A DNA stretch of 64,000 nucleotides from the NCBI RefSeq assembly GCF_046105845.1, contig NZ_CP151004.1; one strand, 5' to 3'. The notes beneath the pieces are model-generated. The model worked only from the letters and a program-made list of their open reading frames with translations, was not told the origin of the DNA and did not search any database. This document shows, one piece after another, positions 13,700 to 14,029 of the stretch. Source of the stretch: Escherichia coli. GTDB lineage: Bacteria; Pseudomonadota; Gammaproteobacteria; Enterobacterales; Enterobacteriaceae. Every line of letters begins with the position of its first letter. Position 1 is the first letter of the stretch. A program made the position numbers and the translations under genes.

Positions 13700-14029
13700 A
13701 TGCTGATCTTCGAAGGTAAAGAGATAGAAACGGATACCGAAGGCTATCTCAAAGAAAGCAGCCAGTGGAGTGAGCCGCTGGCAGTGGTGATTGCAGAGAA
13801 CGAAGGGATTACGCTGTCACCAGAACACTGGGAAGTGGTGCGTTTTGTGCGTGATTTCTATCTGGAATTCAATACTTCTCCGGCGATTCGTATGCTGGTA
13901 AAAGCGATGGCGAATAAATTTGGCGAAGAAAAAGGTAACAGCCGCTATTTATACCGACTGTTTCCGAAAGGTCCGGCTAAGCAAGCCACCAAAATTGCTG
14001 GCCTGCCAAAACCGGTAAAATGTATTTAA
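13700..14029 (+). CDS. tusE: Sulfurtransferase TusE (tRNA 2-thiouridine synthesis)
   Basis: ORF trimmed to [16 protein letters not shown] (109 aa); DsrC-like, C-terminal CI. Confidence 0.93.

Follow-up and report, generated by a model that had tools for sequence, protein, structure and literature searches.

The tusE and acyP genes of Escherichia coli form an ordinary 4-nt tail-to-tail overlap with the same spacing in the sampled Enterobacteriaceae

How do two converging genes end their transcripts when no spacer separates their coding sequences, and does such an overlap serve any regulatory purpose? The question is raised by tusE and acyP (yccX), which face each other in the Escherichia coli DNA stretch of 64,000 nucleotides analysed here (assembly GCF_046105845.1, contig NZ_CP151004.1; hereafter "the window"). 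The tusE product takes part in the sulfur relay for tRNA 2-thiouridine, and the acyP product is an acylphosphatase. Direct reading of the plus strand gives AAA TGT ATT TAA as the 3' end of tusE. The stop codon TAA of acyP is the reverse complement of the TTA at 14026-14028, as both the sequence and the list of open reading frames (ORFs) indicate. The two coding sequences (CDSs) overlap by 4 nt; the stop codons have the nucleotides 14027-14028 in common, and beyond the stops only one wobble base of each gene is common to both CDSs. An ORF starting at 13643 in the ORF list is an upstream extension of tusE, the annotated start of which is at 13700. The features discussed below are collected in Table 1. 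Our answer is that tusE and acyP, two unrelated housekeeping genes, have a 4-nt tail-to-tail overlap of an ordinary kind, which is already annotated.

Table 1. Features at and around the tusE/acyP junction, in window positions
Feature	Position	Strand	Description
tRNA-Ser (serT) and 3' hairpin	12656-12778		Rfam tRNA match, 57.5 bits
yccA intrinsic terminator	13632-13652	+	Just upstream of tusE; consensus scan
tusE CDS	13700-14029	+	DsrC family; 110 codons, 109 aa; start ATG 13700, stop TAA 14027-14029
Second, weaker terminator-like site	13750-13781	-	Stem followed by GCUUUCUUU; custom scan, -10.9 kcal/mol
Hairpin B and tail UUUUUCUUC	13934-13965 and 13925-13933	-	Predicted; candidate intrinsic acyP terminator inside the tusE CDS
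Hairpin A	13973-14015	-	-27.7 kcal/mol, z = -5.3; in the predicted acyP 3' UTR; antisense to the last tusE codons
Shared tetramer TTAA	14026-14029	both	Palindrome holding both stops; YTAR class
acyP (yccX) CDS	14304-14026	-	Acylphosphatase; 92 aa plus stop; start ATG 14304-14302
Hairpin of tusE-strand RNA	14067-14111	+	Inside the acyP CDS, antisense; no U-tract after it
Mapped RNA 3' end	14115-14116	+	MG1655 1030253 and 1030252 (minus strand); 86-87 nt beyond the tusE stop
C-rich, G-poor stretch	14116-14200	+	29 C, 12 G; rut-like composition; directly past the mapped 3' end
rlmI	14399-15589	+	Same strand as tusE, downstream of acyP

Both genes end where their families end. TusE exhibits a match to the Pfam DsrC profile (PF04358; 152.9 bits, E = 4.5e-45) with profile positions 2-107 of 107 aligned to residues 4-109 of 109. 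AcyP matches the Acylphosphatase profile (PF00708; 93.4 bits, E = 1e-26), with positions 3-85 of 85 aligned to residues 8-91 of 92. These full-length matches both exceed the curated Pfam cut-offs (24.9 and 22.5 bits, respectively). Since both proteins stop at the family-typical C-terminus, no alternative stop is plausible, and the overlap neither lengthens nor shortens TusE or AcyP. RefSeq annotates the identical 4-nt overlap in E. coli AH04, and again in K-12 MG1655 (yccX 1030064..1030342 on the plus strand, tusE 1030339..1030668 on the minus strand). By megablast with positions 13600-14420, all but one of 5426 complete E. coli genomes (5425) contain the locus. Compared with MG1655, tusE and acyP differ at 10 of 605 positions, none of them within 40 nt of the junction.

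An earlier, sequence-only reading of this DNA had described tusE and acyP as convergent genes with overlapping stop codons. The sequence, the ORFs and the RefSeq ends in MG1655 and AH04 all agree with that description. The "TTTAA tetranucleotide" of the same reading is five letters long; the tetramer actually common to both CDSs is TTAA. We also looked for another acyP stop or for shifted coordinates, which that reading had named as what could overturn it, and found neither: the Pfam ends, RefSeq and the conservation described below are in agreement.

To what extent the junction is conserved was assessed by a search for the TusE C-terminal peptide GLPKPVKCI, with each species represented by one genome and the stop left out of the pattern. 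This gave at least 120 loci, among which there was no Salmonella and no Klebsiella. At each locus the tusE stop was located, then the nearest convergent acyP homologue, and the spacing between them was measured. Among the matches listed, the spacing is exactly -4 in all Enterobacteriaceae species (34/34); in the sense of this conservation, the arrangement goes beyond chance. The genera include Escherichia, Citrobacter, Enterobacter, Kluyvera, Kosakonia, Leclercia, Lelliottia, Cedecea, Shimwellia, Siccibacter, Mangrovibacter, Phytobacter, Pseudescherichia, Pluralibacter, Pseudocitrobacter and Superficieibacter. The Escherichia junction was read in the window, MG1655, AH04, one further E. coli and E. 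albertii. All four tetramers TTAA, CTAA, TTAG and CTAG occur among the 34 Enterobacteriaceae loci listed, and the bases at the junction vary only in such a way that both stops survive (Y in the first position, R in the last). Across the other species the ends are kept, and substitutions are only synonymous or stop-to-stop. For acyP, about 26 codons separate the stop from the next in-frame one, and a mutation destroying the stop would make the protein longer by about 26 residues. Purifying selection on the two stops and the two C-termini therefore suffices to hold the -4 junction.

Outside the Enterobacteriaceae the spacing is graded. Other Enterobacterales exhibit gaps of 0 (Hafnia), +1 to +15 (Xenorhabdus), +3 to +34 (Serratia), +9 to +10 (Pectobacterium), +12 to +13 (Photorhabdus), +15 to +30 (Dickeya), +21 to +53 (Yersinia) and +44 (Proteus). 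Providencia has the same convergent pair, with a gap within this 0 to +53 range of the non-Enterobacteriaceae Enterobacterales. Among the matches listed, the pair is also found in Vibrionaceae, with gaps of +34 to +107 nt, and no acyP adjoins tusE in Aeromonas, Orbaceae and Succinivibrionaceae. The presence of the same convergent pair with graded gaps in the outgroups indicates that the arrangement is old, and that the spacer shrank to -4 at approximately the base of the Enterobacteriaceae. Together, the fixed -4 spacing in the sampled Enterobacteriaceae and the graded gaps in the outgroups make this locus a clean example of convergent genes that were compacted and then locked.

A small difference lies directly beside the junction. 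In Escherichia (the window, E. coli L070 and E. albertii L008) 3 nt are missing directly after the tetramer, at 14029/14030. These 3 nt are present in the 31 other Enterobacteriaceae (columns 32-34 of our alignment A1 and columns 8-10 of alignment A2), which exhibit a tandem tusE stop (TAA TAG or similar) and a 93-aa AcyP ending in ...IRY. Escherichia AcyP ends in ...IR at 92 aa; its C-terminal tyrosine is gone, yet the -4 register is kept. Accordingly, the junction is not wholly frozen.

Overlapping transcription of tusE and acyP is supported by published RNA data. The pair yccX-tusE is one of the 165 that ExcludonFinder (PMC12288877) lists as convergent excludons in MG1655, each seen in 50% or more of 58 RNA-seq data sets, with the qualification that such a call from coverage is nearly automatic for already overlapping CDSs once both genes are expressed. 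The pair is also named among the tail-to-tail mRNA pairs that occur together in MAPS top lists, which a review credits to stable interactions of overlapping UTRs (PMC7154689). If both 3' ends are where we place them below, the complementary RNA region would extend from about 13925 to 14115.

On the tusE strand the 3' end is known from Term-seq. It appears in two of three condition lists of Adams et al. (2021; PMC7815308 Supplementary file 1), under the class "antisense to yccX". We converted its coordinates with 14029 = 1030339 and checked the conversion against the flanking sequence printed in PMC7815308. The mapped end is 4-5 nt past a hairpin, the centroid stem of which is GCGGCUCG/CGGGCCGC plus GUUCU/AGAAC; its folding is not unusual compared with shuffled sequences (z = -0.95). 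The tail after this hairpin is CACUCUUUAACC, and around the mapped end the sequence reads CACU up to the end and CUUUAACC after it, which is not a U-tract. A consensus scan of 13660-14500 finds no intrinsic terminator on the tusE strand, and the region 14000-14330 folds no better than its shuffles (z = +0.21). Directly beyond the mapped end, the C-rich stretch has a C:G ratio of 2.42; among all 85-nt segments of the two strands of the 64-kb window, this ranks at the 99.7th percentile. This stretch is antisense to acyP and so untranslated in the tusE direction.

Rho-dependent steady-state 3' ends, as PMC6061677 describes them, exhibit a stable stem-loop that is followed by no U-tract but closely by a rut site. 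Two features of this type are found at the tusE-strand end: it comes right after a stem-loop lacking a U-tract, and rut-like RNA follows it. The mapped end carries the hallmarks of a Rho-type, hairpin-protected end, located inside the CDS of the partner gene. The bicyclomycin data of PMC7815308 (Supplementary file 2) list no Rho termination region between MG1655 1029900 and 1030499; data sets of Rho regions exhibit large differences between studies, as PMC7815308 itself remarks.

A comparison across genera finds the hairpin at the mapped end not conserved outside Escherichia, and a conserved structure of the tusE-strand RNA was rejected, RNAalifold giving no consensus (-1.8 kcal/mol). Many non-Escherichia genera (loci L030, L094, L080 and others) exhibit a hairpin of 12-14 bp within acyP, 30-70 nt beyond the stop of tusE. 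In alignment A2 (columns 41-54/66-79) this hairpin is 75.4% paired, compared with 73.0% in controls, and five pairs are changed on both sides, which is a marginal signal. Escherichia is without it and has the different hairpin beside the mapped 3' end.

On the opposite strand, any translatable acyP mRNA must run into tusE, as the CDSs overlap and leave no spacer. The minus-strand RNA past the acyP stop folds unusually well (z = -4.4 for 381 nt, z = -4.2 for 131 nt). Its first hairpin, A, depends on G-U pairs and is for this reason strand-specific. Hairpin B, followed by the U-rich tail UUUUUCUUC, was found both by folding and by a relaxed scan, and was missed by a stricter one, its loop being longer than 8 nt. 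In the window the relaxed scan yields one such site for about every 2.2 kb of each strand, which corresponds to a chance of about 6% of finding one within 130 nt. The tail UUUUUCUUC is the antisense of TusE Glu/Lys codons. As selected RNA structures, hairpins A and B were rejected: in 35 sequences pairing occurs in 89.1% of cells against 89.0% for shuffled data, with 0 compensatory pairs. This lack of covariation indicates that the pairing arises from the conserved TusE sequence, in which the first and second codon positions are invariant. Both hairpins stand as thermodynamic predictions. The supplements of the SMRT-Cappable-seq data contain neither tusE nor acyP/yccX. We regard the acyP terminator at hairpin B as a prediction, not a finding; it gives a concrete predicted position for the acyP 3' end.

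These results bear on the two remaining statements of the sequence-only reading, namely that there is no intergenic terminator and that both genes are read through into each other. As to the former, no spacer exists to hold a terminator, and within 13660-14500 neither strand has a site that the consensus scan scores as terminator-like. Transcriptional read-through as such is backed by the excludon listing (PMC12288877), the Term-seq end inside acyP (PMC7815308) and the MAPS remark (PMC7154689). Its mutual character has direct 3'-end evidence for the tusE strand, and the acyP-strand end is a prediction. By these published data the transcripts overlap; the read-through is not open-ended, a defined 3' end adjoining a hairpin inside acyP. 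Term-seq had been proposed as a check for both transcripts: the published tables of PMC7815308 contain the tusE-strand end and list no acyP-strand 3' end inside tusE ('tusE' gives 0 matches), which could reflect low acyP expression or a predicted terminator that is not used.

We think it probable that tusE/acyP is an ordinary locked-in overlap, in which the tusE-strand end is produced by Rho and trimming, the acyP-strand end lies at hairpin B, and no regulatory benefit is needed. With no spacer, each transcript must end inside the other gene. As mapped, the tusE-strand RNA runs 86 nt into acyP and ends at 14115/14116. RNA polymerase may go on into the C-rich, G-poor antisense sequence of 14116-14200, where Rho would terminate it, and exonucleases would then trim the RNA back to the hairpin at 14067-14111. 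Collision with converging polymerases may take the place of the Rho step. The acyP-strand RNA would pass hairpin A and stop at hairpin B and UUUUUCUUC, at about 13925-13933, some 100 nt inside tusE. The two mRNAs would then have 100-190 nt of complementary 3' sequence, an arrangement now known as a convergent excludon. The -4 spacing is most simply held by the fact that each flanking base keeps one stop and the C-terminus of the other protein. Under this double constraint on every flanking base the overlap, once formed, would be locked in without any regulatory benefit.

The same layout could instead have been selected as a regulatory excludon, in which polymerase collision, RNase III acting on a duplex of about 100-190 bp, or both, would couple TusE and AcyP reciprocally. 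The pair is indeed on the convergent list, and excludon pairs exhibit higher synteny than controls (PMC12288877); yccX/tusE is also named among the co-purifying MAPS pairs (PMC7154689). The convergent layout is old, extending from Enterobacterales to Vibrionaceae, and the -4 spacing is invariant in the 34 Enterobacteriaceae species among the matches listed. However, selection on the two stops and the C-termini fully accounts for the conservation of the -4 spacing. The RNA structures do not follow the junction in its conservation either, the tusE-strand hairpin being unconserved between Escherichia and the other genera and the acyP-strand hairpins being without covariation. There is no obvious reason for the functions of TusE and AcyP to exclude each other, and we found no reciprocal expression data for the two genes in the literature. 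We consider this explanation unlikely. If reciprocal regulation were true, the locus would be one more validated excludon. The broader claim that the -4 junction and the embedded 3'-end elements constitute an antisense switch conserved across Enterobacteriaceae, setting TusE (possibly with rlmI) inversely to acylphosphatase, is quite improbable; if true, the locus would be a functional excludon or a noncontiguous operon, not a case of passive genome compaction.

A noncontiguous operon would require that the tusE-strand RNA crosses the antisense acyP into rlmI, so that two genes of RNA modification are expressed together, with acyP transcription interfering. The opposite-strand gene acyP does separate tusE from rlmI, both of which run in the same direction. 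The order yccA, tusE, acyP (reversed), rlmI is conserved in Enterobacteriaceae, Serratia, Yersinia, Hafnia, Plesiomonas and several Photobacterium, and no intrinsic terminator is predicted on the plus strand from tusE to rlmI. Against this, the dominant tusE-strand 3' end at 14115/14116 is well short of rlmI, and past this end comes untranslated, C-rich RNA of a kind that Rho terminates. The three noncontiguous operons that ExcludonFinder gives for MG1655 (PMC12288877) do not include this locus. This arrangement is very improbable on the present evidence. In some species extra genes are present between acyP and rlmI. Finally, an artefact of annotation or coordinates, with another stop in use or acyP not a real gene, has virtually no probability, as both stops are the first in-frame ones after complete Pfam domains and the RefSeq ends are identical in K-12 and AH04 and kept in 34 other species.

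Several further elements were observed in the neighbourhood. Upstream of tusE, the primary 3' end of yccA in Term-seq is at MG1655 1030711, corresponding to approximately 13657 in the window (PMC7815308), only about 43 nt ahead of the tusE start codon. With the yccA terminator so close, tusE must depend on read-through of that terminator or on a promoter located within yccA; the region 13632-13699 yielded no promoter-like site. Adams et al. (PMC7815308) also list an ORF-internal 3' end 9 nt into yccA (MG1655 1031409 on the minus strand, approximately 12959 in the window), which suggests a short RNA derived from the 5' leader or premature termination. An Rfam search of 11500-16500 (E-value mode) yields nothing at the junction and, elsewhere, only tRNA-Ser and weak sub-threshold matches. 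A perfect 11-bp hairpin (12752-12778) follows serT and is terminator-like on both strands. A palindrome at 15962-16019 matches Rfam NsiR1 on both strands at 32.3 and 26.2 bits, below the gathering score of 39. It is near the end of hspQ (about 15647-15964 by the AH04 annotation), at a place that in MG1655 is the convergent hspQ/yccU gap. Most likely this palindrome is a bidirectional terminator of the ordinary kind, unlike the spacer-less tusE/acyP junction.

How does this locus compare with known systems? Convergent overlaps of 4 bp formed through CTAA, TTAA, CTAG or TTAG are a described and over-represented class (Lillo and Krakauer 2007, PMC2174442). The tusE/acyP junction has the same layout as this YTAR class, with TTAA as one of the permitted tetramers and all four in use among its relatives, and exhibits no essential difference from it. 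It belongs to the commonest class of convergent overlaps, of which it is a textbook instance. With the convergent excludons (PMC12288877) it has in common the overlap of the transcripts at their 3' ends, yccX-tusE being itself on the list. Most of the listed pairs have an intergenic region, with a mean of 95 nt, whereas in tusE/acyP the CDSs themselves overlap. Compared with the Rho-dependent, stem-loop-protected ends of Dar and Sorek (2018, PMC6061677), the tusE-strand end is alike in its stem-loop and in the C-rich sequence downstream; it differs in that Rho dependence at this site is undetected in the bicyclomycin data of PMC7815308. The overlapping bidirectional or collision-driven terminators of Ju et al. 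(2019), as recounted in bioRxiv 10.1101/2022.10.23.513370, similarly involve a convergent pair with a stem-loop near an end that does not look intrinsic. The tusE/acyP elements differ from them in being inside CDSs and not in a spacer, and in that the 3' end of one strand is mapped.

A further comparison is found in the window itself. The sequence-only reading had likened the junction to that of yccS and sxy: sxy-yccS is likewise a convergent pair with overlapping CDSs and no spacer, and is on the same excludon list (PMC12288877). The overlap there is 38 nt in MG1655 (1021730-1021767) and consists of real coding sequence, compared with 4 nt in tusE/acyP. The tusE/acyP overlap by itself matters little, being in the reference annotation, of a common class and in a pair already catalogued. 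The overlap, its class and the excludon pair are all already known, and nothing in the comparison points to a new mechanism.
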